In this document: positions 1,992-64,000 of the stretch, piece by piece
Layout of the letters: every line of letters starts with the position of its first letter
Position numbering within the stretch: position 1 is the first letter of the stretch
Virus record (IMG/VR): IMGVR_UViG_3300011116_001229
Source: a virus
Taxonomy: Duplodnaviria > Caudoviricetes
Reading direction: 5' to 3' (one strand)
DNA length: 64,000 nucleotides
Program-made: the position numbers and the translations under genes
The notes under the pieces: generated by a model
The model's database searches: none
The model's input: only the letters and a program-made list of their open reading frames with translations
Told to the model about the DNA's origin: nothing

Positions 1992-3179
1992 ATGGTTAAG
2001 AAGACAAAAAGTGAAATAAGCGCTGAAGACAATATTGTTGACTCAATGACTAATGATTTGATCAAAGCTCTTAACAAAGAGTTTGGCCAAAAGATTGCTT
2101 TTAATCTATCAGAAGATGAAGCACCAACCATCGTAAAGCGCTGGATCGATACAGGTTCTATTCAGCTTAACTACGCCGTGAGAAATGCATTCGCTGGCGG
2201 TTATCCAGAGGGACGAATCATTGAGATCAGCGGACCACCTTCCATCGGCAAGTCTCATCTTGCCTACCATGCAGCGCTTGTAGTTCAGTCTCTCGGTGGG
2301 CTTGTGGTTTATATTGACACTGAGAATGCTACAAGCCCCCAGAAGCTCGCTGATATGGGCATCGATGTTCGTAAGCGATTTGTTTATTGTGACTCACACT
2401 GTACAGAAGAGGTATTCTCGATTATTGAGTCAACAATTCTTAAGGCGAAACAGATCATAGACAAGAATGTTCCCATCTTGGTTGTATGGGACTCAGTCGC
2501 AGCAACATCACCAAAGGCAGAACTTGACGGTGAGTACGAAGATAACACAATCGGTCTTCAGGCTCGCGTAATTTCAAAGGGTATGCGTAAGATCACTGGT
2601 GTGATTGGTCAGAATAACGTAACTCTTCTCTGTCTTAATCAGTTAAGAACTGCAATCGGAGTAATGCACGGTGACCCAGACATTACACCAGGTGGAAAAT
2701 CCATCCCTTACCATGCGTCTCTCAGAATTAAGTTAACTAGCGGTACGCAGGTAAAAGACAAGAATGGAAATGTGATTGGTATTCACGTCATCTGCACGAT
2801 CAAGAAGAATAAGGTTGCTCCGCCATTCCGCAAATGTGAGTTCGATATTATCTTTGGCAAGGGTATCGTTGAGGATGAGTACATCTTTGATGAAGTCCGA
2901 AATCACTGCAAGGATGTTGGACCTGTTAAGCGTAAGGGTAAGTCAATTAAGATATCAGGTGAAGGCGCATGGAAAGAACTTTCAGTCCTTGATGACAAGA
3001 CAGGCGAAGTTATTATTGAAAAGAAGTTCTACAAGAATGAGTTTGGTGCATTGCTAAAAGATGACAAATATTCACCATGGATTATGGAGGCAATTGATTC
3101 AGCGCTTACGCTTGTGAGTGGTCCCCCACGCGATGAGTCGGATGTAATTGAAGACGACGAGGAAGATTCCGATGAGTGA
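1992..3179 (+). CDS. recA: RecA/UvsX recombinase
   Basis: GRIIEISGPPSIGKS (Walker A), YIDTE, VVWDSVAA (Walker B), IGLQAR, PGGK, KNKVAPPF. Confidence 0.95.
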   Translation: MVKKTKSEISAEDNIVDSMTNDLIKALNKEFGQKIAFNLSEDEAPTIVKRWIDTGSIQLNYAVRNAFAGGYPEGRIIEISGPPSIGKSHLAYHAALVVQSLGGLVVYIDTENATSPQKLADMGIDVRKRFVYCDSHCTEEVFSIIESTILKAKQIIDKNVPILVVWDSVAATSPKAELDGEYEDNTIGLQARVISKGMRKITGVIGQNNVTLLCLNQLRTAIGVMHGDPDITPGGKSIPYHASLRIKLTSGTQVKDKNGNVIGIHVICTIKKNKVAPPFRKCEFDIIFGKGIVEDEYIFDEVRNHCKDVGPVKRKGKSIKISGEGAWKELSVLDDKTGEVIIEKKFYKNEFGALLKDDKYSPWIMEAIDSALTLVSGPPRDESDVIEDDEEDSDE

Positions 3180-3642
3180 CAAGGGAATGACAAGAAAAGT
3201 TAACCCGATCTGGGTAAGAGCTACCATTGACAAAAACGGATCTTTCCCTAAATACCAGACGGAGTCTTCAATAGGCTGCGATTTGCACGCTGCTGAAGAT
3301 GCTGTTATTAAACCAGGAAAAAGATTGCTTATTGGAACTGGAATCCGTCTAGAGACGCCTAGCGGCATCGGAGCAATCGTATGTTCTAGATCAGGACTTG
3401 CGATCAAGCATGGTGTAGCTGTCCTAAACTCTCCAGGAATAATTGATAGTGACTTTAGGGGAGAAATAAAAGTTATACTACACAACTCCGGTGATGAAGA
3501 TTTTCACGTAAATGCAGGTGATAGAATTGCACAGCTCGTGTTTTTCCCAATTGTGCAAGCTATCTTTCAGCATTCCGAAGAATTAACACAGACAGGACGC
3601 GGCGAGGGCGGATTTGGTAGTACTGGTATTTCTTCGACATGA
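3172..3642 (+). CDS. dut: Trimeric dUTPase
   Basis: GCDL, SRSGLA, GIIDSDFRGE, RIAQLV, RGEGGFGSTG. ATG at 3172 overlaps the recA stop. Confidence 0.95.
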   Translation: MSDKGMTRKVNPIWVRATIDKNGSFPKYQTESSIGCDLHAAEDAVIKPGKRLLIGTGIRLETPSGIGAIVCSRSGLAIKHGVAVLNSPGIIDSDFRGEIKVILHNSGDEDFHVNAGDRIAQLVFFPIVQAIFQHSEELTQTGRGEGGFGSTGISST

Positions 3643-7451: not shown

Positions 7452-10400
7452 ATGTCGTACACACGTGATGAAGCTTTTAACGCCTCTTTAAAGTATTTCA
7501 ACGGAGATGAATTAGCTGCGAGCGTATTTGTTGATAAATACGCGCTGAGAGACGCGTCAGGGAAATTACACGAACTGACACCGTCAGATATGCACCGTAG
7601 ACTGGCGCGTGAGTTTGCAAGAATTGAAGCCAAGTATCCCAATCCGTTGTCTGAAAAAGAAATCTTTTGTCTTTTGGCTGACGTAGATCACATTGAAGAA
7701 TCAAAGCGCGCATCTATGACATTGGATGAATTGGCTTCTGAATCTCGAGGATTCGGTGCCGTGGTGCCGCAGGGTTCTCCGATGTCGGCCATTGGTAATG
7801 AATTTCAGTATCAGTCGTTATCTAATTGCTTCGTGATTCAGTCGCCTTATGATTCCTACGCTGGTATCCTAAAAGCCGACCAAGAGCAAGCTCAAATCAT
7901 GAAACGTCGAGGAGGTGTTGGCTTTGATGTTTCTACTATTCGTCCAAAAGGATTAATCACAGCAAACGCTGCCCGTACCACAGACGGCATTGGGGTCTTC
8001 ATGGAAAGGTTCTCAAATACCTGCCGCGAAGTTGCCCAAGGTGGCCGCCGCGGAGCGTTAATGCTTACTATCGATGTTCACCACCCAGAGATCCGCACCT
8101 TCATCAACATCAAGCGCGACCTCAAGAAGGTTACTGGTGCCAACATCTCCATTCGTCTCACTGACGAATTCATGCAAGCAGTGAAAGATGGTGAAAAAGC
8201 ACACCTTAGATTCCCTGTTGAGAAGGACGCAAAGCATACAGTTGAAACTTGGGTTGATGCTCGAGAACTTTGGCATGAAATTATTGAAGCAGCTTGGGCT
8301 TCTGCAGAACCAGGACTATTATTCTGGGACACTGTCAAGAAGCGTACACCAACTGAGGCATATGAGGATTATCGTTCAACATCCACGAATCCATGTATTG
8401 TTGGTGATACGCTCATTGCCGTTGCAGACGGAAGAAATGCAGTCAGTATCCGTCAGCTTGCGGAAGAAGGCAAGGACGTTCCGGTGTATTCGACTAACCC
8501 AGAAACTGGTCAAGTTGAAATTAAATTAGGAAGAAAACCGAGACTAACAAAGAATCAAGTCGAGGTCTGGAAGTTGACGCTTGACGATGGAAGCTTCCTT
8601 ATTGCAACACCTGATCATAGGATCATGAAGCGCGACTGCACTTATGTGGAGCTTCAGAACCTAAAGTCTGGTGATTCCATCTTTCCATTCAACTCTTTTA
8701 ATTCAAATGGGTACAGACAAGTTTCCAACACAGGTGTCTTGATGACAGGCGGAGCTCGAAGAAATAGACGACAGTATCGTCTCATCCACGAGTTCCATTT
8801 TGGGCCCGTTGATCCAAAAATTCATGCTATTCATCATATTGATTGTGATTCTCTCAATGACAGCATTGAGAACATGAGGATCATGACCCATAAGGAACAT
8901 CATGATTTACATTCTAAGAACATGCTGGGGGAGAGCAATCCTTACTTCAAGATGTCTGAAGAGTGGAAAACAAACTTTGCAACCCATCCTGGCGAAACAA
9001 ATGGCAGATTCTCGGGCCATACTAACGATCAGCTTCTTGAACATGGCAGGAATCTATTTGAGAAACATGGCAAGCTGACAGGAAAGATCTGGTCGGACCA
9101 TGCCAAGAAACATGGTCTACCTCAATTCCTTGCAAATAAGTTCCGGTTTGAGTCTTGGAATAACTTTGTTAATCAGGTATCTAACAATCACAAGGTCGTC
9201 TCAGTAGAGAAATTCGGCATTGAGGATGTCTACAATATCACGGTTGACGATAATCACAACTACCATGTTATCACTTCACATGAGGATTCCAAGTTCGTGG
9301 TTTCCTCTGGCATCTGTGTCAAGAACTGCGGTGAAATCGTTCTATCACCATACGATTCTTGTAGGTTGCTTCTCGTCAATCTCTACAAGTTCGTCAAGAA
9401 CCCATTCACATCTGCTGCCTCATATGACAACGAGAGACTCAAGGATGTTGCAGTTAAAGCACAGCGTCTCATGGATGATCTCATCGACCTTGAGATTGAA
9501 GCTGTTGATAAGATCATTGCTAAGATTCAGAATGATCCAGAACCAGAAGACGTTAAAAGGTCTGAACTTGACCTCTGGACTAAGATTAAAAAAGCAGCTC
9601 TCGGAGGTCGGAGAACTGGCTTGGGTATCACTGCGCTTGGAGACACATTGGCTGCAATGGGCTTCGTCTACGGTTCAAAGAATTCTATCCAAATGACTGA
9701 ATCGCTCTACAAGGCATTAGCACTTTCTGCCTATCGTTCGACTGTCGCGATGGCTGCAGAGCGTGGTGCATTCCCAGTCTTCTCTCATAAGCTTGAGGAG
9801 AAGCATCCATTCATCCAACAAATCCTTGAAGCAGACCCTGATCTCGCAAAGGATTACAAGAAGCACGGCCGCCGAAACATCGCTCTAACAACTACAGCAC
9901 CGGCTGGTTCTGTGTCTGTCCTAACGCAAACGACGTCTGGTATCGAGCCGGCGTTCATGCTCTTCTACAAACGCCGCAAGAAGGTCAACGGTGATGATCC
10001 AAATGTTCGTGTCGACTTTGTAGATCCACTCGGCGACAAGTGGCAGGAGTACATGGTATACCATCATGCTTTCAAGAAGTGGATGGAGGTCAACGGAAAG
10101 ACCGAAACCGACTTCGCTGAGTCTCCATACCACGGCGGCACCGCAAATGAGATCGATTGGGTTGCCAAGGTCGACCTCCAAGCCGCCGCCCAGAAGTGGA
10201 TCTGTCATTCTATCTCCAACACAACAAACATTCCAAATTCAACTTCAGTTGATGTTGTCAAGGGCATCTACATGAGGGGTTGGGAGACTGGGTGTAAGGG
10301 TGTCACAATCTATCGTGATGGATGCCGAACCGGCGTTCTCGTAGCAGAGACTCCGAAGGAAGAGCAGACAATTGAAGGTCAGCCTGATACCTTAATAGAA

Positions 10401-10955
10401 AATCATGCACCAAAGCGACCCAAGGAATTAACCTGTGATATTCACAGAATTAACGTGAGGTCATCTGGTGACAATGAGAGCTATCTTGTTTTGGTGGGTA
10501 AGCTAGAAGATAAGCCATACGAAATCTTCTGCGGTCTATCGCAGCACGTTGAGGTACCGAAAAAAGCCAAGACAGGTACGATGATCAAGAATGGCAAGAA
10601 GGATGGGGTTGCGACCTACAATCTTCAGATTCCGATTGGTGATGATGATCAGCTATTGTTCAAGGACGTTGTAGAATTATTTTCAAATCCAAATCATGGA
10701 TCCATGACAAGAACTTTATCGTTAGCACTACGACATGGAGTTCCTGTTCAATACGTGGTTGAGCAGCTTCAAAAGGACAAACACAGCGGCCTTCAGTCTT
10801 TCTCTAGAGCTATCTCTCGTGTCTTAAAAACATATATTCCTGATGGAACAAAAGCGCAGTCAGACAAGATCTGCGGTTCTTGCGGTCTTGAAGGAATTGT
10901 CTACAAAGAAGGTTGCGCAACCTGTAACTCTTGCGGTTGGTCAAAATGTGGGTGA
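7452..10955 (+). CDS. nrdJ: Class II (B12-dependent) ribonucleotide reductase containing an intein
   Basis: LSNCFV, RRGGGVG, GGRRGA, TNP|CGE once the intein is removed, TAPAGS, TSGIEP, TIYRDG, C-terminal Cys ribbon. No beta-subunit gene nearby. Confidence 0.9.
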   Translation: MSYTRDEAFNASLKYFNGDELAASVFVDKYALRDASGKLHELTPSDMHRRLAREFARIEAKYPNPLSEKEIFCLLADVDHIEESKRASMTLDELASESRGFGAVVPQGSPMSAIGNEFQYQSLSNCFVIQSPYDSYAGILKADQEQAQIMKRRGGVGFDVSTIRPKGLITANAARTTDGIGVFMERFSNTCREVAQGGRRGALMLTIDVHHPEIRTFINIKRDLKKVTGANISIRLTDEFMQAVKDGEKAHLRFPVEKDAKHTVETWVDARELWHEIIEAAWASAEPGLLFWDTVKKRTPTEAYEDYRSTSTNPCIVGDTLIAVADGRNAVSIRQLAEEGKDVPVYSTNPETGQVEIKLGRKPRLTKNQVEVWKLTLDDGSFLIATPDHRIMKRDCTYVELQNLKSGDSIFPFNSFNSNGYRQVSNTGVLMTGGARRNRRQYRLIHEFHFGPVDPKIHAIHHIDCDSLNDSIENMRIMTHKEHHDLHSKNMLGESNPYFKMSEEWKTNFATHPGETNGRFSGHTNDQLLEHGRNLFEKHGKLTGKIWSDHAKKHGLPQFLANKFRFESWNNFVNQVSNNHKVVSVEKFGIEDVYNITVDDNHNYHVITSHEDSKFVVSSGICVKNCGEIVLSPYDSCRLLLVNLYKFVKNPFTSAASYDNERLKDVAVKAQRLMDDLIDLEIEAVDKIIAKIQNDPEPEDVKRSELDLWTKIKKAALGGRRTGLGITALGDTLAAMGFVYGSKNSIQMTESLYKALALSAYRSTVAMAAERGAFPVFSHKLEEKHPFIQQILEADPDLAKDYKKHGRRNIALTTTAPAGSVSVLTQTTSGIEPAFMLFYKRRKKVNGDDPNVRVDFVDPLGDKWQEYMVYHHAFKKWMEVNGKTETDFAESPYHGGTANEIDWVAKVDLQAAAQKWICHSISNTTNIPNSTSVDVVKGIYMRGWETGCKGVTIYRDGCRTGVLVAETPKEEQTIEGQPDTLIENHAPKRPKELTCDIHRINVRSSGDNESYLVLVGKLEDKPYEIFCGLSQHVEVPKKAKTGTMIKNGKKDGVATYNLQIPIGDDDQLLFKDVVELFSNPNHGSMTRTLSLALRHGVPVQYVVEQLQKDKHSGLQSFSRAISRVLKTYIPDGTKAQSDKICGSCGLEGIVYKEGCATCNSCGWSKCG
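8394..9326 (+). mobile_element. 311-aa intein with HNH homing endonuclease
   Basis: Starts CIVGDT and ends ICVKN before +1 Cys; block B ATPDH; HNH-type IHHID...N.SIENM...H. Removal restores NPCGE. Confidence 0.92.
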
Positions 10956-54783: not shown

Positions 54784-55596
54784 TTATTTAGAAGAGTTTT
54801 CTTGAGGTTGTTGTTCTAACAACCTTCGTTTTTCTTCACGATTTTTAGCTTGAGTCTTGCGTCTTTTTTCAATCGTTTCTTGAGAAGGAGAAGGTCTGGG
54901 CTTTCCCTTTTGGGATTCTGACATTCTTTTTTTCGTTTCTTCTGAACGTTTTCTTCCTTTACTAACGGCAGATAACTTTTGCCTCGTTTCTTCTGAAACT
55001 GGCTTTTTATTCTCTGCTATCTTTTTCTTTTGTTCTTCCGTAAGCTTCCACTTTCTTCTGGCTTCAGAAAGCTTTCTTCGATGTTCTTCTGATTTAGGAC
55101 CGGTATTTTTCCCCTTCATAGACTCAGACATTTTGCGAAGTGTTTCTTCAGAATGAGGTGGAGGTTTTTTGCCTTTGTTGACTTCCCGAAGCTTTTGTTT
55201 ATGTTCTTCAGAAAGATGTTTGCCACGGAATGAAGAACCTCGTATATAACGTTGTTCATCTGAAAGATTTGAATTTGCTTCTTTTATCTTTTGTATTGTT
55301 TCAGTTGAAAACTCAAAATGATCGCCGCCAGACGTTAGGTTATAACCTCGTTTAAAAGAATCGAATCTTTCTATCCATACACGTTCTCGTTCATTTGTAA
55401 CTTCATCTTCACACTCTTCTATTATTTCGAATGTAAAGTTTTCTTTACCGTATTTTCTAATAGCAGCGTGAAATTTATATCCTGTTCCTTTTAACGCTTC
55501 ACAAAGATGACCCCTTACTCTTTTGTTAAAATCTTTTGTTTGTCCTACATAACATTTACCATCTAACAAATTTTTTGCCAAATAAATAAACCGCAT
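54784..55596 (-). mobile_element. GIY-YIG homing endonuclease with NUMOD3 repeats
   Basis: FIY...N...K.YVGQT, R...H, E; repeated (H/V)SEET/H..K.S units. Confidence 0.88.
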
Positions 55597-55680: not shown

Positions 55681-57615
55681 TCACGAATCTCTCCAGAGGT
55701 TATTTGTGGCAAAAACGAGGACCTCCTCGGCGGATTCTGGAGAATATGAGTAATCACGGATCATGGTTTCAACCATGTCACTGTACTTCTTCTGCTGTTC
55801 ATCATTCCTCGTCTTAGACTTGGTGATGATTCTTGCCATTGTTCTAACTGAAGATATCAAGAATGACTCGATTGCATTCTTGAGCGGCTCGTAAGTCTTG
55901 TAAGAAACCTTTTCACCTCGTCTCATCTTGGCAAACATGTAAGCTGTGACATCGGATCGGAAGCCGTCCTTTGCTGAACCTGTGACGCCGATCTGCTCTT
56001 CAATAGACACCATGAATTGCTCATCAGGCTTGCGCTCTTCTTTGGTGATCCTATCCTTGAGCTTTGATCTCGTTGTGTAAGCCTCAGCATTATCGAGGTA
56101 AGAGTCAAAGAGAGACTGTGCTTGTTCCTCATATGCTGAGATGAAAGCCTTGGCAATCTCGGTCTCTAGGATTTTGAGGTACTCTTCTCGAATTGTTTTC
56201 TGAAGAAGCTCTAGGCACTTTGACTTGAATTGCTCATCGACAATTTGCTCTTTCACCATCTTGGTCAAAGAATCCATGATAGAGATTGGTGTGATCATGT
56301 TCTTGTCGGATGCTGTAAGAGCATTGTCAAGAGCCTTCGTGATGAACCGCGTAGAGATGCCATCAAGACCTTCGTGCTTCGCTTCCTCCCTAAGGTCCTT
56401 GATGTCGACCTTGCGAACCCTTCCCTTTTCGAGGACGTCTTCACCGTTGTAGATCTTCATCTTGGTGAGGAGGTCACACTTGGCAGAATCCTTGAGACGG
56501 CTCATGACTGAGAACATTGAAGCAATCTTTAGGGTGTGCGGAGCGATATGTGACTCGAAGTCCGACTTGCCCAACATCTTCTCGTAGATCTTTACTTCTT
56601 GATTTAGCTCAAGGCAGTAAGGAACGGAGATCTTCACGATGCGGTCCATGATGGCTTCGTTGGTGTGCTCAGACTTAAATCTGTTCCATTCAGCCTCGTT
56701 GCAGTGTGCTAGGATAACACCGTCGAAGTGAAGCATGTCGGACTTACCAGGAGATGGGACTCGCTTTTCCTGCGTTGCTGTGATGATGGTGTGGAGGAAC
56801 TCAATCTCGTTCTTGAAGACCTCGACGAGTTCAACGATACCACGATTACCCACGTTGAATGCACCGTTAAGAGAAAGAGCTCTTGGATCATCTTCTGCGT
56901 ACTTATCAAGTTTCGAGATGTCGACGGAGCCGATGAGAACGGAAACGTCTTGCGAGTTAGCATCCATTGGAGGAACAGAGGCTACGCCACGTCTGCCGCG
57001 CTGTGAGAAGGTAACTTCTTCAACCTCGAAGTCCTCGTACTTGCCAGCGTAATCGTTGAGAAGCTTGTGACGAGCGACAGGAGAAATGTCACCGTCAATT
57101 TTCACGTTGATAGCCGCTTCGATTGATGGGCGGAGCGAACGTGGGATGAGTTGTAGAGGTTCACCGCGGTGAGGATCGCCTTTGAGGGTGTAGTACTTCT
57201 TTCCTTCGAGAGCCTTTTTGATGTGCTCTGTTAGCGCAGACTTACCTGCGCCGACTGGACCCATGAGCAAGAGGACCTGACGAGATTCTTCACCCTTGTG
57301 AGCCGCGGAAGACAAGAAGCTCATGACCTTCTCGATGACTGTCTCCATTCCGAAGAACTCCCCCTCGAAGTACTTGTGAATCTTGATGTTCTCGCCGTCG
57401 AAAATCTTATTTTTTCTTGGATCAGAATCTGGCAGGACATAAGAACCATGTTCAGAAATTGCGTCGAAAAGTCTCTTGTGAGCAGACTTGACAACAGCTG
57501 GATCTTTCTCAACCATCTCGATGTAGTCCATCAAATTACCTGAGAATTTCTTGGTCTTGCTTGATTCTTCTCTTGCTGATTTAATCTGTTGTAGAAGTTG
57601 TTTCTTGATGCTCAT
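55681..57615 (-). CDS. prkA: PrkA/YeaG AAA+ protein
   Basis: EFFGME, GPVGAGKS, NRGIVELVE, HCNEAEW, VPYCL. Confidence 0.93.
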   Translation of the reverse strand: MSIKKQLLQQIKSAREESSKTKKFSGNLMDYIEMVEKDPAVVKSAHKRLFDAISEHGSYVLPDSDPRKNKIFDGENIKIHKYFEGEFFGMETVIEKVMSFLSSAAHKGEESRQVLLLMGPVGAGKSALTEHIKKALEGKKYYTLKGDPHRGEPLQLIPRSLRPSIEAAINVKIDGDISPVARHKLLNDYAGKYEDFEVEEVTFSQRGRRGVASVPPMDANSQDVSVLIGSVDISKLDKYAEDDPRALSLNGAFNVGNRGIVELVEVFKNEIEFLHTIITATQEKRVPSPGKSDMLHFDGVILAHCNEAEWNRFKSEHTNEAIMDRIVKISVPYCLELNQEVKIYEKMLGKSDFESHIAPHTLKIASMFSVMSRLKDSAKCDLLTKMKIYNGEDVLEKGRVRKVDIKDLREEAKHEGLDGISTRFITKALDNALTASDKNMITPISIMDSLTKMVKEQIVDEQFKSKCLELLQKTIREEYLKILETEIAKAFISAYEEQAQSLFDSYLDNAEAYTTRSKLKDRITKEERKPDEQFMVSIEEQIGVTGSAKDGFRSDVTAYMFAKMRRGEKVSYKTYEPLKNAIESFLISSVRTMARIITKSKTRNDEQQKKYSDMVETMIRDYSYSPESAEEVLVFATNNLWRDS

Positions 57616-57647
57616 AGTATTTATTGTACTTATTGTTAGGTGTTTGA

Positions 57648-58958
57648 TTAATCAATTTCCCAAGGTTCTTCTTCTACAATAGTGTAGAATTTGACCGGTT
57701 TGCCCCAGAGGTGTTTGACGTGTTCAACCACCTCGTCAGCATGTTTTAATTCAAGATCACGTCCGTCATGCTCATGCCTTATCACTAACAGTCCGTCTTT
57801 CTTTAACTCATCAACATAAACGACGGGTATTGAACCCCCCGCTACATTTGCGATGAGGTCTTCTTTCACTTCCTTCCAGCCTTTTTCATCTGAAACGTCA
57901 TCAACTGTGACACCTGATTTTTTCTTAGATGAATAGCTAAAAAGATTTAGATCAACGCAATCCTCTTCGGTTAGATACTGTCGTAAGAACGAAACATCGT
58001 AACAGACTTCGCGAGCCAAGAAGCACTCGTCAATTCCGTGTCGTTCTTTAATTTTTTGGAAAAGATGGAATCCAAGGTGGTAGGGATTAATGGAACCAAT
58101 ATGTGGGCGCACAACAGCGTTATGCATCTTGATGATGGGGATGTGAAGTTCTCCAGGAAGATCTAGTTCGTGACAGAGCGTATAGTGCCAGTACGAAGCC
58201 CAGCCCTCGTTCATGATCTTTGTCTGGATCTGTGGCCAAAAATATTGACCTTCTTCGCGACACACATGAATGATATCACGCTTCCATTCAGGAATGTCAG
58301 CATTGTCTTCTATGAATCCTAATAAGTCGTAGTCGGGTTCAAGTGGGTATGTGTCTAGATTGAAATCTTTGTATTTGCTTTCGTCTTTGTTGCTGTTGAT
58401 TTCCTCAATATACTCAGCTTTAATTTCATCGTGTGATCTTCTGATTTGCCCGTATTTTGTCGTCTGAAATTGCAGGGCCTGACAGGCATCTAGTGTTCTC
58501 TCGACTTTTTCAATTCCAATGTGCTGATCTTCTACGTACTTTTGGATTCTCTTCTTTGCAGAACGTAAACGCTGGATCACGGATTCGGGACGCGTGTTCT
58601 TGAACATCCTGTTGTTCTTGAAGAAATCAGAGTGTCCGACGCAGTGCGCCATGATGAGAATCTGAAGATATAACGGATTCTCTCTCATAAGATACGCCAA
58701 CGACGGATTGCTATTGATGATAAGCTCGTAGGGCAATCCTTCGGCACCGAGGTTGTAGCGATTCATTGTCTGTTCGAAAGACTTGCCGAAAGACCAGTGG
58801 GAATACATGGACGGCATGCCGTGATGTACCATTGCGCCGATCATCTCATGATAATCAACGACTTCGTAATCTAAGTCAAACCAGTCGAGATTATGATTTT
58901 TAGCTAACTCAATGATTCGTTCGTCCCAAGTCTTAAGATCTTCAAGCTTATAATCCAT
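57648..58958 (-). CDS. spoVR: SpoVR/YcgB family protein
   Basis: HWSFGK, YELIINSNP, AHCVGHSDFFKNN, TKIMNEGWASYWH, NPYHLG. ATG overlaps the yeaH stop (TAATG). Confidence 0.93.
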   Translation of the reverse strand: MDYKLEDLKTWDERIIELAKNHNLDWFDLDYEVVDYHEMIGAMVHHGMPSMYSHWSFGKSFEQTMNRYNLGAEGLPYELIINSNPSLAYLMRENPLYLQILIMAHCVGHSDFFKNNRMFKNTRPESVIQRLRSAKKRIQKYVEDQHIGIEKVERTLDACQALQFQTTKYGQIRRSHDEIKAEYIEEINSNKDESKYKDFNLDTYPLEPDYDLLGFIEDNADIPEWKRDIIHVCREEGQYFWPQIQTKIMNEGWASYWHYTLCHELDLPGELHIPIIKMHNAVVRPHIGSINPYHLGFHLFQKIKERHGIDECFLAREVCYDVSFLRQYLTEEDCVDLNLFSYSSKKKSGVTVDDVSDEKGWKEVKEDLIANVAGGSIPVVYVDELKKDGLLVIRHEHDGRDLELKHADEVVEHVKHLWGKPVKFYTIVEEEPWEID

Positions 58959-60118
58959 TATTGTGCCTCCACTGTGCCATTCATCAGATTCAAGAAGCTC
59001 GGCCAAACGTCCTCTTTCTTTTGAATTCTCACTTGCTTTAATTTATTGCCTTGAAGGGGCTTAAGAAGTGAGTATATCTTGTCAGGTGCTGTCGACCAAT
59101 TAGCATCCGGTTCTATTTCGCAGTAGCCGTACAGTTGAATCGACGTGAGAAGCTTTCTTGCTTCATTTAGAAAATTCTCATTATCGTCAGAGAAGTTGTC
59201 TCCATCTGAACACTGGAAAAGGTAAACGTTCCACGAGTTGGGATGGAATCTCTTGCTCATGATGTCGGAGGCAAGCTTGAGCGCAGACGAGGCTCTAGTC
59301 CCGCCAGTTGATGCTTTTTCGAAGAAGTCTTTTTCTTCAACTTCTTGTGCTTCTGTGTCGTGAGAAATAAAGACGATCTCTATCGTCTCGTACTTGAGCC
59401 TGAGGAACTGATACAGGAGAAAGAAGAAAGATCTCGCTAAAAACTTCTTATCCTGTGACATGGACCCCGACACATCCATGACAAAGAAGATGACTGCATT
59501 CGTGCACGGCTTCTTTGTAATCTTATAATGTCTGTACTTCAGATCGTCTTCGTGAAAGGGAAAACTGTCATCTTCAGAATTTTCATGATCAAAGCCTGCT
59601 GCCTTCATCCTTTTGATCCTAGCAATTGCAGATTTTTTGCGATCAAGTCGAGGTATGATACCCTCAGTTCTATAGCCTTTTCTCTTCAACTTTTCTGTGT
59701 CAATATTGCTTAATTGACGCTTCTGCAATTCAGGAAGTTGCAGTTCTGAGAAGAGGTATTCAGCGAGTTCTTCATGTGTAATCTCTACGTCGTAGTATTC
59801 TTCACCTTTGTCACCGCTTGCTTTGTTTGGTTGACCCTGTCCTTCGGGCGGAGGATCACCAATCTTCTGACCTCTCTTGACGTCTTTTCCTGGTGCTGAT
59901 CCTACTTGTTTACCGTTGCTGCCGTAAACAAATCTGTACTCTTTTATTCCTCTGACTGGAATGCGGTACTTTTGCTTACCATCCTTGCCGATGATGCTTT
60001 CATCGGCAACAATGTGGTGAATTCCCTCGCGTATCGCCTTTTCGATCTTCTGCTTGTGTCGGCGCCGATCTGATGCAGTTCGATCTGCGACAGTTTTGTG
60101 TTCTCGAAAAATACTCAT
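58958..60118 (-). CDS. yeaH: YeaH/YhbH (DUF444) vWA-domain protein
   Basis: DRRRH, EYRF.YG, VMDVSGS (MIDAS), HDTEA, GGT, SDGDN. Confidence 0.92.
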   Translation of the reverse strand: MSIFREHKTVADRTASDRRRHKQKIEKAIREGIHHIVADESIIGKDGKQKYRIPVRGIKEYRFVYGSNGKQVGSAPGKDVKRGQKIGDPPPEGQGQPNKASGDKGEEYYDVEITHEELAEYLFSELQLPELQKRQLSNIDTEKLKRKGYRTEGIIPRLDRKKSAIARIKRMKAAGFDHENSEDDSFPFHEDDLKYRHYKITKKPCTNAVIFFVMDVSGSMSQDKKFLARSFFFLLYQFLRLKYETIEIVFISHDTEAQEVEEKDFFEKASTGGTRASSALKLASDIMSKRFHPNSWNVYLFQCSDGDNFSDDNENFLNEARKLLTSIQLYGYCEIEPDANWSTAPDKIYSLLKPLQGNKLKQVRIQKKEDVWPSFLNLMNGTVEAQ

Positions 60119-60194
60119 GAGTTAGTGTTCTGATTATAAGTAATCGTCTAAACTTTGATTATCTTTTGTTTTTTGAAAGTCAACAATTACTAGG

Positions 60195-60224
60195 TTGCAA
60201 ATATCAGACTGAATGTGTTACAGT
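60195..60224 (+). promoter_or_regulatory. Sigma70-type promoter with extended -10
   Basis: TTGCAA-N18-TACAGT with TG at 60216-60217. Confidence 0.6.
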
Positions 60225-60254
60225 TAGATTATTAATAGAAAGGCGGGTATTCCA

Positions 60255-61100
60255 ATCCCAGAAGGTCCAGAGCTTAAACATTCACGTGATAGACTTAGAG
60301 AGGTCTTGCTTGATAAAAAAATCACAAGATTGATGACCGCTGAAACGGGTCGCTACAAAACAAAGCAACCCGATGGCATGTCAGAAATCATTGAAGATTT
60401 GCCTCTCAAGGTCACTTCAATTGACACAAAGGGCAAGTTCATGTGGTGGACTTTGTCAGGAAAAAATAAATTTTGGTACATGTGGTGTACATACGGCATG
60501 TCAGGTCAGTGGTCGCGTGCAGCAGGCAAACACGTTGGTTTCATTGTAGAATTCAATGATTCAGGTGCACTAATCACCAGAGATCAGCAGAAGATGTTCT
60601 TTAATGACACTAGACGGTTCGGTACAATTAAATTCGTCTGCAATCAAGATCAACATGATAAGAAGTTGAACTCACTAGGCCCAGATGTACTGGAAGACCC
60701 ACCAGTTGACCCAGAATTATTCGCAAAAAGAATTCTACATAAACCTAATCGCACAATAGCAGAAGCTCTCATGGACCAATCTTGTGTCTCTGGCGTAGGA
60801 AATTATCTCCGTTCGGAAATTTTGTATGATTGTAAAGTTGATCCCTGGCGGTGTGTAACTGATATTACTAGCGAAGAATTCGTGAAGCTGTGTGAGGCAA
60901 CAATAAGAATCGCAAAGAAATCCTACAAATCACAGGGAGCGACCATCAAAACGTATCGAAATATTGATGGATCTGAAGGGACCACGCAATTTAATTTTAA
61001 GGCATACGGTCGCAGGCTGTGCCCGTCAGGTCACGTGATTGCTCGGAAGAAAGATAGAAATGGAAGGATGATGCATTGGTGTACTTTGTGTCAAAAGTAA
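60255..61100 (+). CDS. Fpg/Nei DNA glycosylase with apparent ATC start codon
   Basis: ATC-PEGPE, KGK, YGMSG, D.RRFG, LGPD, MDQ...SGVGNY...E, C-terminal zinc finger. Confidence 0.88.
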
Positions 61101-61134
61101 GTTACATGAAGCCTGGACTCCTATATTTAGGAGT

Positions 61135-61911
61135 ATGATCATATACTCATGCTTTAATACAAACACGGGCAAACACTACATCGGGCAAACCAAGTTCACT
61201 GTATTCGAGAGGTTCCGCGGGCATCTCAAAGATGCCAGAATGCAAAAATCGTATAGAAAAGGAAGTAAGTTTCACTCAGCATTAAGAAAGTACGGGAAAG
61301 ACGCGTTCATTATTACTGTTCTCACCACATGTAATACCCAAGAGGAAACAGATTTGGCTGAGCAGTACTGGATATCGTACTTCAACTCAACGGATGATGA
61401 TTTCGGATACAACACTGCGATTGGTGGATTAACACACTTTGGCCCCAAGAATCATTCCGAGGAAACTAAGGCAAAGATGAGGGCAACAAAACTCGGCAAG
61501 AAATTTACAGAAGAGCACAAACGAAGAATAAGTGAATCCAACAAGGGAAAGCACAATCACTCAAAAGAAAATCATCCGCTTTGGGGTAAAAAACACTCTG
61601 AAGAAACTAAGCAAAAGATTGCTGATGCAAACAGAATAAAAAGCTCAGGTGAAAACAATGCACGATGGGGAGCAATAGTTTCTGATGAAACTCGAAGAAA
61701 AATATCCGAGGCAAACAAAGGGATGTTCTTGGGATCTAAATCTCCCTCTGCGAAATTAAATGAAGATAAAGTTGTAGAAATTCTCATGTACTCTTTATCT
61801 CATTCAGAAAAAGATACATGCGATACCTTTTCGAAAAAATTTGATGTATCACAGCAACTCATAAAAAGTGTGGTAAGAAGAAAATCGTGGAAACATGTTG
61901 AAATTAAATAG
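61135..61911 (+). mobile_element. GIY-YIG homing endonuclease with NUMOD3 repeats
   Basis: IIY...N...KHYIGQT, RF.GH, E, YN; HSEETK and GENN repeats; C-terminal helix-turn-helix-like segment. Confidence 0.88.
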
Positions 61912-61913
61912 TG

Positions 61914-61997
61914 ACGGACGGTTTTTGTCACAAGACGACGAGAGAAGAAACAGAAGACCGACGTACATCCTGGTGGTGTGAAACTTGTCAAAATTAA
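61914..61997 (+). pseudogene. Orphan 27-codon duplicate of the Fpg/Nei C-terminus
   Basis: TDGFCHKTTREETEDRRTSWWCETCQN* aligns without gaps to [27 protein letters not shown]. Confidence 0.75.
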
Positions 61998-62047
61998 ACT
62001 AACTTGTCAATTTATGCTATATTTAAATTTGATGACTCAAGGTCGTT

Positions 62048-62323
62048 ATGAAGACTGACATGGCAACAAGAAGTAGCTCAGCTGGCTGGAAGATCGGTGA
62101 AAGATCTACAGAATTTCAGCTACACAAGTCTCAGCTTCCTGCGTCTAATGTCAAAAAGGTCTTGGACTACACCGAACACAGGCTGAGAATTTTTCTCCAA
62201 AGAATCTTAGACCCTCAGCAAAAACAAACACTCAATGAAGTCATTAAAAAATATTGCAAGGGCGAGGTTGCAGTTGCTTGGAAAGCTGGAAAACCTGTCT
62301 GGATTAATGTGACGAAAGATTGA
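62048..62323 (+). CDS. Hypothetical protein
   Basis: 91-aa ORF; TATTTA at 62020. Confidence 0.6.
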   Translation: MKTDMATRSSSAGWKIGERSTEFQLHKSQLPASNVKKVLDYTEHRLRIFLQRILDPQQKQTLNEVIKKYCKGEVAVAWKAGKPVWINVTKD

Positions 62324-62366
62324 CGTAATTTATACAGTTTGATCATTTGACTTAAAATTCAAAGCT

Positions 62367-64000
62367 ATGTACGTCAATAATGATCAACCGAAAACAACTA
62401 AAGTTGTATTTTCATCCGAAGCGCGCAAGTCACTTTTTCAAGGAATGCAAACAGTTGCTCGTGCAGTTGGAAGCACTTTAGGACCGCGCGGTAAGACTGT
62501 TCTTATACAACAAAGCTCAAATTCTCAACCAATTATTACAAAAGACGGAGTTACAGTTAGCAAGTCTATAAATCTAAAGACTCCGATTGAGAGAATGGGA
62601 GCCCAGCTCATAAGAGAAGCAGCGTCACAGACTAATGAAATTGCAGGTGACGGCACTACAACCGCAACCGTTCTCACTTTCTCCATGGTGAAATCCGGAC
62701 TTAAATTGTTGGAGGCGGGCTATGACGCTAAAGCACTTTGTTCGGGCATCACCAGCGCATCAGAAGCTGTTTCTTGTTTGTTAAAAGAAAGTGCAAAGCA
62801 ATTGACAACCGTCGAAGAGATTGCTCAGATCGGAACAATCAGCGCAAACGGCGACAAATCAATAGGTCATCTCATTGCTGACGCAATGACAAAAGTGGGC
62901 CATGATGGGATCATAACAGTTGAAGAGGCTAAGAGTATGCAAACTCAGCTTGACGTAGTTGAAGGCATGCAAATTGACAGAGGATATCTCAGTCCATATT
63001 TTGTTACCAACAATGAGAAAATGCACGCTGCTTATTCTGATGCTAAAGTTCTATTAGTTGATCAAAAACTTAATAGCATGAGAGAAATGCTGCCACTTCT
63101 TGAAAAAGTTTTGCAATCAAAAGTTCCTTTATTAGTAATTGCTGACGAAGTTGAGGGTGAAGCTTTGCAGGGCTTAGTTGTTAACAGAATTAATGCACAT
63201 TTACCTGTTGTTGCGATTAAAGCACCTGGTTATGGCAAAAGCAGGGAAGAATTCATGCGAGACATCGCGGTAATGACTGGTGCGAAAATTGTGTCGCCTT
63301 CAACTGGTCTATCCATGAGCAAGACAACTATGTCCGACTTGGGATCTCTCAAGAGTCTGCTTGTTGATGCAAAATCTACTACTATGGTTGGCACAGGCGC
63401 AACAAAACAGTCTATTAATGCGCACGTTGAAGAACTTAAAATTCAATTGAGAGACATCACGCTTACACAGGAAGAAGCTGAAAGACTCAGACTTCGAGTA
63501 GCTAGATTATCTTCCGGTGTGGCTATTATCAAAGTAGGTGGAGCAACTGAGCTTGAGATCATTGAGACTAAGTACAGAATTGAAGATGCATTAAATGCAA
63601 CCCGCGCTGCCGTTGATGAAGGAATCGTTCCAGGCGGAGGGATGGCGCTGTTTGAAATTTGGAGAAAACTCTCCAGTGACAAAGATTCTGGTTGGGCTCA
63701 ATTTGGCACGGGTGGATCAATTGTTGCTGATGCTTGCTTAGCTCCCATTCAAAAGATTTCTGAAAATGCCGAGAAGAGTTACGAAGTTATTATTAGCGAT
63801 CTTATGCGTCAGAAAAAAGAAGACAATTGTCCAGAGATTGGATACAACGCAGCATCTGAAGAGTACGTCAATATGATTGAAACAGGAATAATCGATCCTG
63901 TTAAAGTAACAAGAACGGCTCTCAGAAATGCCGCCTCAGTTGCGTGTACATTTCTCTCTCTTGATGCAGTAATTGTCGAAGAAGATGATGAACAAGAATA
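62367..64000 (+). CDS. groEL: Chaperonin GroEL; runs to the window edge, last bases TA may begin the stop codon
   Basis: TLGPRG, ITKDGVTV, AGDGTTTAT, EGMQIDRGY.SPYF, KAPGYG, PGGG, IIDPVKV. Not in the ORF track because the stop is outside the window. Confidence 0.95.
   Translation, partial: MYVNNDQPKTTKVVFSSEARKSLFQGMQTVARAVGSTLGPRGKTVLIQQSSNSQPIITKDGVTVSKSINLKTPIERMGAQLIREAASQTNEIAGDGTTTATVLTFSMVKSGLKLLEAGYDAKALCSGITSASEAVSCLLKESAKQLTTVEEIAQIGTISANGDKSIGHLIADAMTKVGHDGIITVEEAKSMQTQLDVVEGMQIDRGYLSPYFVTNNEKMHAAYSDAKVLLVDQKLNSMREMLPLLEKVLQSKVPLLVIADEVEGEALQGLVVNRINAHLPVVAIKAPGYGKSREEFMRDIAVMTGAKIVSPSTGLSMSKTTMSDLGSLKSLLVDAKSTTMVGTGATKQSINAHVEELKIQLRDITLTQEEAERLRLRVARLSSGVAIIKVGGATELEIIETKYRIEDALNATRAAVDEGIVPGGGMALFEIWRKLSSDKDSGWAQFGTGGSIVADACLAPIQKISENAEKSYEVIISDLMRQKKEDNCPEIGYNAASEEYVNMIETGIIDPVKVTRTALRNAASVACTFLSLDAVIVEEDDEQE

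Follow-up and report, generated by a model that had tools for sequence, protein, structure and literature searches.

A probable end-replacing homing endonuclease cassette in the fpg/nei gene of an uncultured phage

Free-standing endonucleases of phage T4 (SegB, SegF, SegG, MobE) cut the DNA of an endonuclease-less phage, and the break is repaired from the co-infecting donor with co-conversion of the flanks; both flanks are homologous in these cases and, to our knowledge, a duplicated gene fragment has not been described. In the WHO elements of the yeasts Torulaspora and Lachancea, a full-length host gene is immediately followed by the free-standing endonuclease gene, and integration swaps the 3' end of FBA1 for the presumably resistant version of the donor and pushes the old end downstream (Coughlan et al., 2020, eLife; PMC7282813). 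The displaced fragment then acts as a second region of homology, the 5' and 3' parts of the host gene have discordant phylogenies, and fragments and endonuclease genes decay or are deleted (PMC7282813). 'Gene hybrids' are also made by the mobile open reading frames (mORFs) of fungal mitochondria, as reported for atp6 of Allomyces macrogynus and for atp6, atp9, cox2 and nad3 of Glomus, with a GIY-YIG enzyme in one case (atp9) (Beaudet et al., 2013; PMC3630166). In phages, homing endonuclease gene (HEG) islands were noted to contain small genes that are pieces of essential neighbours and could provide substrates for recombination (Barth et al., 2023; PMC10055350). Here we describe a locus on 64,000 nucleotides (nt) of phage DNA (Caudoviricetes; IMG/VR record IMGVR_UViG_3300011116_001229; the whole stretch is called the window below), in which an fpg/nei DNA glycosylase gene is followed by a free-standing GIY-YIG/NUMOD3 homing endonuclease gene and by an orphan fpg end. 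An earlier note on this DNA, the coordinates and translations of which we could reproduce, including the orphan residues from 61914 on, had proposed that the endonuclease replaced the 3' end of fpg and left the old end behind. Our analysis makes it very likely that the locus carries an end-replacing homing endonuclease cassette which spreads without intron or intein ('intronless homing').

Mosaic structure, allelic states and spread of the cassette

The fpg gene (60255-61100; like all features of the locus on the plus strand) was compared with relatives from 12 IMG/VR loci and 51 metagenome loci. Relative to the endonuclease-free locus L001, the Fpg protein is 79% identical in alignment columns 1-206 and 40% in columns 207-302, and relative to L003 it is 48% and then 75% identical over the same columns. 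The 5' two thirds (60255-60791) are of the resident type, with 79-93% amino acid identity to the endonuclease-free loci L001, L071 and P0125 and approximately 48% to L003 and L064. The 3' third (60809-61100), assigned by amino acid identity and blastn and here called type B as distinct from the orphan-like type A, is foreign; its 97 codons include a CHCC zinc finger and the TAA stop codon, and it shows 75-84% amino acid identity to L003, L064, L066 and L067 and 40% to L001. Both parts are joined by a patch of 17 nt (60792-60808, codons G-V-G-N-Y-L) in which resident type and cassette do not differ, and right after it type B diverges from type A. In alignments of seven chimera/parent pairs, the left switch point was identical. 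By blastn, 60258-60808 and 61944-62393 align with L001, and 60711-61907 aligns with the cassettes of L064 (83.7%) and L063 (77.9%), in which the same endonuclease gene follows fpg and the neighbouring genes differ from those of the window. Homology to other cassettes stops at 61905-61907, 2-4 bases before the endonuclease stop codon. These two homology limits define a cassette of approximately 1.1 kb (60809-61907), composed of 97 fpg codons, a spacer and the endonuclease gene. A replacement of the fpg C-terminus by the element, as proposed, is thereby upheld, but its extent is approximately 97 codons (60809-61100) and not 27.

The chimeric fpg gene is complete. Its product scores above the cut-offs of both Pfam domains (PF01149 and PF06831; Fapy_DNA_glyco 50.5 bits, H2TH 59.2 bits) and ends with a C-x3-H-x15-C-x2-C zinc finger tail, which we take to be comparable to the CHCC finger of NEIL2, and a stop codon (TAA, 61098-61100). 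Among cassettes, the ratio of non-synonymous to synonymous substitution rates (dN/dS) in the type B part of fpg is 0.06-0.12. A spacer of 34 nt (61101-61134), colinear with those of L063, L064 and L066 and partly kept in L065, which has no endonuclease, leads to the ATG of the endonuclease gene (61135-61911).

Downstream of the cassette, the orphan frame opens at 61908, overlaps the TAG of the endonuclease gene, spells a zinc finger tail in the register of the fpg end and closes with TAA at 61995-61997. The orphan matches the true fpg tail of L001 (tblastn E 4e-8, in a small sequence set), which ends with ...GHPVRHEETADGRTSWWCETCQN*. In L001 the order is fpg, 49 nt, orf91 and GroEL without an endonuclease gene, the latter two products being 81% (orf91) and 88% (GroEL) identical in amino acids to those of the window, in which 50 nt separate the orphan stop codon from the next gene. 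The same order was found in the endonuclease-free loci L071 and L111. The latter is a contig of 1.7 kb with a type A tail at the syntenic place and only 12 mismatches in 1405 nt to 61971-63375 of the window (99.1% identical). The question set beforehand, whether endonuclease-free relatives end in the orphan-type tail, is answered in favour of the earlier proposal by L111, L001, L071 and P0125, which lack the endonuclease gene and all end with ...GRTSWWCETCQN*. As claimed in the earlier note, the working tail and the orphan agree in length and register, but only about 8 of 27 residues are common to both, a weak argument if taken alone; it is the relatives that show the likeness not to be due to chance. 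The suggested swap of zinc ligand patterns did not hold, as intact tails of both types read C-x3-H-x15-C-x2-C and the odd C-H of the orphan sits at its truncated 5' edge.

The orphan, in turn, is of mosaic composition. Its first segment (61908-61928) covers the last endonuclease codon, the stop codon and the 5' edge of the orphan frame; these 21 bases have no match in any locus compared, apart from a faint resemblance, with gaps, to the Cys-x3-His codons of L120. The following 41 nt (61929-61969, codons H-K-T-T-R-E-E-T-E-D-R-R-T-S) are identical at 41/41 positions to the fpg tail of L120 and L121, a different lineage with the gene order fpg, UvdE, orf97 and GroEL, and were imported with the cassette. 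Compared with the resident allele L111, 8 differences fall in the 27 nt of 61944-61970, and from 61971 on the window matches L111 as resident DNA. The informative sites switch in a TGGTGGTGT patch common to L120 and L111 (61970-61979), which marks the right crossover interval, and the remainder of the old fpg end (61980-61997, E-T-C-Q-N and stop codon) is identical to L111. The orphan is thus this genome's own old end, as had been assumed, in its last nine codons, but not in the 41 nt at its 5' side, which come from another lineage. Similarly, in the orphan of L066 the 5' 128 nt are foreign, and the 3' part together with the downstream DNA is 98.5% identical to L001. From both mosaics it follows that the orphan stub was brought in by the cassette and underwent recombination with the resident tail; the orphan would hence have acted as a right-hand homology arm, with crossovers inside it in two lineages (window and L066).

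A further allele was found in L119, which belongs to the same strain (one mismatch in 2015 nt downstream, none across 60702-61096). It lacks 897 bp comprising the endonuclease gene and the orphan, and its chimeric fpg is kept and ends with ...CQN*. The deletion joint lies in the 8-nt direct repeat TGTCAAAA, of which the left copy is located in the working tail (61089-61096) and the right copy in the orphan (61986-61993). Upstream of the cassette, the window and L119 differ at 13 positions, all of them within 415 nt of the fpg 5' part (60287-60701); the next 395 nt are free of mismatches, and this distribution suggests a further small recombination patch at 60287-60701. Run X5, which belongs to another study than the probable source samples, contains both forms, a contig spanning 61067-62015 (depth 28.1) and a 52-nt contig with the 897-bp skip (depth 28.5), in which 8 nt fit both sides of the joint, with flank depths of 51-52; these depths are contig means and not read counts, giving a rough ratio. 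L068 represents an analogous endonuclease-lost form in the L001 background, and L065 retains an orphan of 30-36 codons and part of the spacer without the endonuclease gene. Endonuclease-free CPSGH-type ends, which the earlier note had counted against its own proposal, do exist (L119, L068 and L065), but they are derived by endonuclease loss. The aligned contigs therefore demonstrate three allelic states, namely empty (L111), occupied (window) and endonuclease lost (L119).

The endonuclease gene directly follows fpg in every member of its family with readable context down to 62% identity (window, L066, L063, L064, L122/L123 and L124), and the cassette was detected in at least seven fpg lineages, always with the same left boundary. 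Among IMG/VR sequences, the best endonuclease relative was 37% identical and fpg was nearby in none of the loci concerned. Orphans differ in size, from approximately 3 codons (L064) over 27 (window), 30-36 (L065) and 45-53 (L066) to approximately 75 (L063) and 99 codons (L122). That of L063 is 90.6% identical to the endonuclease-free L089, and that of L122 begins right after G-N-Y. The completeness of the L122 orphan suggests that the whole 3' third is first duplicated at integration and the stub trimmed later; given its 99 codons, independent illegitimate right junctions are a less likely origin of the different lengths than progressive deletion.

Several of these loci show additional features. 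The L122 endonuclease (2501-3404; also in L123) has 206 amino acids, lacks the C-terminal approximately 50 residues of its relatives and passes straight into the orphan, which gene callers report as a gene of 98 amino acids; a microhomology of 5 nt (TAAAG) to the full-length endonuclease sequence is present at the joint. In L064 (2227-2239), the endonuclease gene seems to close with the old fpg terminus: its last codons, S-Q-K-stop, would correspond to C-Q-K/T-stop, and the GTGA in which stop and start of the following SET-like gene overlap has been retained along with them. An open reading frame (ORF) of L063 (5656-5922) is the orphan fpg 3' part and not a SET-like gene; a true SET-like gene follows the endonuclease gene in L064 and fpg in L003. 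In run X12, a contig of 167 nt matches 61861-61966 and is preceded by 61 unrelated letters, and could represent a further variant of the junction or of the 3' end of the endonuclease gene.

The 5' and 3' parts of fpg have discordant phylogenies. The type B tails, including that of the window, form one group in the 3'-part tree, and the type B label changes 3 times on this tree and 14 times on the 5'-part tree, at least 7 of the latter being forced by well-supported branches. With groups named after the trees had been seen, approximately unbiased (AU) tests rejected a single type B clade for the 5'-part data (p 1e-13) and a grouping of the window with its 5'-part kin for the 3'-part data (p 2e-6). 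Identities of the 5' and 3' parts were 96% and 54% for L064 and L092, 97% and 59% for L077 and P0237, and 93% and 36% for the window and P0125. The window and L067 (~800-1020) or L069 differ at only 2 positions in 217 nt (60793-61011; 99% identical), after which L067 and L069 continue, from the Cys-x3-His codons on, with a type A tail, and their fpg 5' part and GroEL are approximately 75% and 66% identical to the window at the DNA level. This points to part of the cassette having been exchanged very recently, and without the endonuclease gene. Taken together, these comparisons establish the mosaic structure and the spread into many lineages.

Proposed mechanism and rival explanations

In the mechanism that we propose, the mobile unit would consist of a foreign, presumably cleavage-resistant 3' third of fpg/nei, the spacer and the GIY-YIG/NUMOD3 gene, with a fragment of an older fpg end downstream. 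During co-infection, the endonuclease would cut an endonuclease-free fpg, most likely near the H2TH codons (G-V-G-N-Y-L), a segment that every orphan lacks, and the cassette-bearing genome would serve as template for repair, with the left crossover in the 17-nt patch and the right crossover, as seen in the mosaics, in the TGGTGGTG patch of the orphan or real tail, or at a point beyond it. The outcome would be a functional fpg chimera followed by the endonuclease gene and a displaced stub; the stub would be neutral and shortened by deletions. Short repeats in the working tail and the stub would finally permit precise loss of the endonuclease gene, leaving fpg chimeric and probably resistant. 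No orphan keeps the segment just after G-N-Y both intact and joined to its upstream context, and type B diverges immediately after the patch; on these two grounds the recognition site is predicted, with low to moderate confidence, at the equivalent of approximately 60780-60890. We infer that the uninvaded type A allele is cleaved, where it is cut and that type B resists. The proposal is also favoured by the conserved residues and purifying selection of the endonuclease and by a UvsX-like recombinase encoded in the window.

Some observations weigh against this mechanism. All data are metagenomic contigs, the AU-test groups were defined in retrospect and the X5 ratio is approximate. Type B loci are mostly without the endonuclease gene (L003, L075, L077 and L083), and some type B transfers may be plain recombination. 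Between the window and L066, the synonymous divergence (dS) is 0.26 in the endonuclease gene and 0.92 in the adjacent type B segment of fpg; this lower value in the endonuclease gene indicates that the cassette has undergone recombination internally and is not in all cases transferred as a unit. Finally, the target could lie elsewhere (orf91, GroEL or intergenic DNA) and fpg could be a mere co-converted flank.

The explanation that survives best besides the proposed homing is that ordinary homologous or illegitimate recombination between co-infecting phages shuffled the fpg 3' module, with the endonuclease gene as a bystander in intergenic space. The type B loci without endonuclease, the mosaicism inside the cassette with its unequal dS values and the general mosaicism of phage genomes fit this explanation. 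However, in four contexts the foreign block and the endonuclease gene end no more than 2 nt apart, the endonuclease gene adjoins fpg in all family members with readable context, duplicated orphan fragments occur solely beside the endonuclease gene or its remnant spacer, and presence and absence are polymorphic among near-identical genomes. We therefore regard a bystander role as unlikely. Less likely still is a function of the orphan, either as a small gene or as a regulatory element; it could, for instance, encode a zinc-ribbon peptide translationally coupled to the endonuclease via the TAG/GTG overlap at 61909-61913. A GTG does overlap the endonuclease stop codon, and the orphans of L063 (88 amino acids) and L122 (98 amino acids) are long enough for gene calls, but length, frame relative to the endonuclease gene and 5' edge vary in every lineage, the first zinc ligand is missing in the window orphan, the allele without an orphan reaches a similar abundance in the same sample (X5), and no terminator or promoter pattern was found in 60900-62100.

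Two further explanations are extremely unlikely. A tandem duplication of the fpg 3' end in this genome, followed by divergence and later insertion of the endonuclease gene between the copies, would account for the equal length and register of both tails, but it is hardly credible, as the working tail clusters with distant lineages (75-84% amino acid identity) and shares 217 nt at 99% with L067, the orphan equals L120 at 41/41 positions and then L111, and the near-isogenic L111 has one type A tail. An assembly chimera, conceivable for an uncultured-phage assembly from metagenomes, can practically be dismissed, as the stretch was found in at least 16 runs from 8 studies (labelled as lake, river, estuary or freshwater metagenome), independent contigs span the junctions (X5 record 25, 61067-62015; X16 record 14, 61676-62030) and the same architecture occurs in the independent assemblies L063, L064, L066 and L122.

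The endonuclease, the fpg start codon and the surrounding phage genome

The endonuclease (258 amino acids) was assigned by Pfam, conserved residues and dN/dS. It matches PF01541 with 30.3 bits (cut-off 22.6) and, in two stretches downstream of the nuclease domain, NUMOD3 (PF07460) with 70.7 bits. Residues Y4, Y15, G17, R26, H30, E76 and N93 are those held by 81-98% of 122 homologues, and the conserved Tyr, Tyr, Arg, His, Glu and Asn positions presumably correspond to the I-TevI residues. The C-terminal 50 residues are conserved among P0001-P0006. Judged by a dN/dS of 0.07-0.13 among cassettes, the endonuclease is under purifying selection. A sequence search of the PDB with the endonuclease gave no match. 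The fpg and endonuclease genes lie in different frames, with a stop codon for the former and a separate ATG 34 nt further on for the latter, and no Rfam family, group I and II introns included, was detected in 60000-62400 at E up to 1; on this evidence the gene is not of the intron- or intein-borne kind. A search for promoter and terminator patterns in 60900-62100 found none. A hairpin with a 7-bp stem (61117-61137) covers the AGGAG before the endonuclease ATG, and was rejected as a signal (z -0.92; folds at least equally stable in 34 of 200 shuffled sequences); the homologous spacers of L066, L064 and L063 lack it.

Fpg/Nei enzymes use an N-terminal Pro, the first residue once Met is removed. 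As this residue is needed for catalysis, the start of fpg was placed at the ATC at 60255, which lies directly before the catalytic Pro (PEGPEL) and is probably the start codon; the candidate TTG at 60306 was rejected, as the Pro of PEGPE directly follows the ATC. When the start codon context was compared across 27 sequences including the window, the codon before the catalytic Pro was ATC, ATT or GTT in 10 (window, L002, L004, L067, L068, L070, L081, L082, L086 and L119) and ATG, GTG or TTG in the rest. Several of the fpg sequences with a non-canonical start have the upstream motif GAAAGGCGGG in common, and ATC, ATT and GTT before Pro look like genuine non-canonical start codons.

Further downstream of the orphan, the resident gene orf91 (91 amino acids) extends from 62048 to 62323 and GroEL begins at 62367. 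Upstream of fpg, the opposite strand encodes DUF444/YeaH, SpoVR and a PrkA-like protein; this block (55681-60118, minus strand) is kept beside fpg in this phage group and is also present in L065, L066 and L120, and the PrkA/SpoVR/YeaH triad is normally bacterial. The PrkA-like gene (55681-57615, minus strand) is closely followed downstream by a second GIY-YIG/NUMOD3 endonuclease gene (54784-55596, minus strand; 270 amino acids, 35% identity to the first), and a search for an orphan PrkA tail beyond the latter gave nothing significant. That the window is derived from a phage follows from its genes for a DNA polymerase, a DnaB-like helicase, a ribonucleotide reductase and a UvsX-like recombinase. 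Residues 365-532 of the large reductase subunit (1167 amino acids; 7452-10955) match the HNH endonuclease family phrog_59, and the reductase homology is confined to two blocks flanking this match, which may be an intein or an in-frame endonuclease insertion. A DNA search of the phage collection with 60200-62400 gave no match, and GroEL matches in cultured phages were at most 46% identical; by these comparisons the phage is without a close cultured relative.

Comparison with known systems

The locus resembles the T4 cases in that a free-standing GIY-YIG or HNH gene lies between or beside conserved genes. For HEG-islands, the role of gene fragments was put forward as a general remark on ICP1-like phages, and replacement of a gene end, mosaic orphans and three alleles were not resolved there (PMC10055350). 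In our literature search, for which the coverage of journals was incomplete, no phage study was found that resolves the replacement of a gene end together with empty, occupied and lost alleles.

With mORFs, the locus shares the order of foreign C-terminus, endonuclease ORF and native C-terminus, as well as a native end that matches close relatives and an inserted end that is divergent. Unlike the fpg locus, mORFs reside in organelle genomes and are often in phase with the host gene, whereas fpg and the endonuclease gene described here have their own stop and start codons; a mosaic orphan and an allele with precise loss were not described for mORFs (PMC3630166).

As in the WHO system, the cassette of the window replaces a gene end, displaces a fragment and yields discordant phylogenies of the 5' and 3' parts. 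Other common traits are the position of the endonuclease gene behind a complete host gene, the probable use of the fragment as a second region of homology and the later decay or deletion of fragments and endonuclease genes. WHO enzymes, by contrast, are LAGLIDADG proteins, intein-like and with a zinc finger, that act in meiotic diploid nuclei on FBA1 and occur in tandem clusters, whereas the phage cassette encodes a GIY-YIG/NUMOD3 enzyme with fpg/nei as predicted target and was seen with only one endonuclease gene and one orphan per locus. Slightly better than even, in our estimate, are the chances that phages harbour a true WHO counterpart, with a resistant replacement end, an endonuclease gene and a travelling orphan, which has remodelled the DNA-binding third of a repair enzyme in at least seven freshwater lineages and runs through a cycle of invasion, fixation and loss within single water samples.

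Several consequences would arise. Elements of this type would carry protein modules, here the H2TH/zinc finger third of Fpg/Nei, between phages of which the other genes are 63-90% identical, and the data provide a target-site prediction for an uncharacterised GIY-YIG enzyme. As the three allelic states are available as near-identical sequences, two of them in one sample, the life cycle should be traceable in time series of public metagenomes. In annotation, a short ORF behind an endonuclease gene, such as that of 88 amino acids in L063 or of 98 amino acids in L122, can be a gene fossil. If phages do possess a WHO counterpart, the orphan would have two roles, as downstream homology arm for entry into new lineages and as repeat for scar-free loss of the endonuclease gene, and the fpg locus would add a well-resolved phage example to the end-replacing homing otherwise documented in fungal mitochondria and yeast nuclei.

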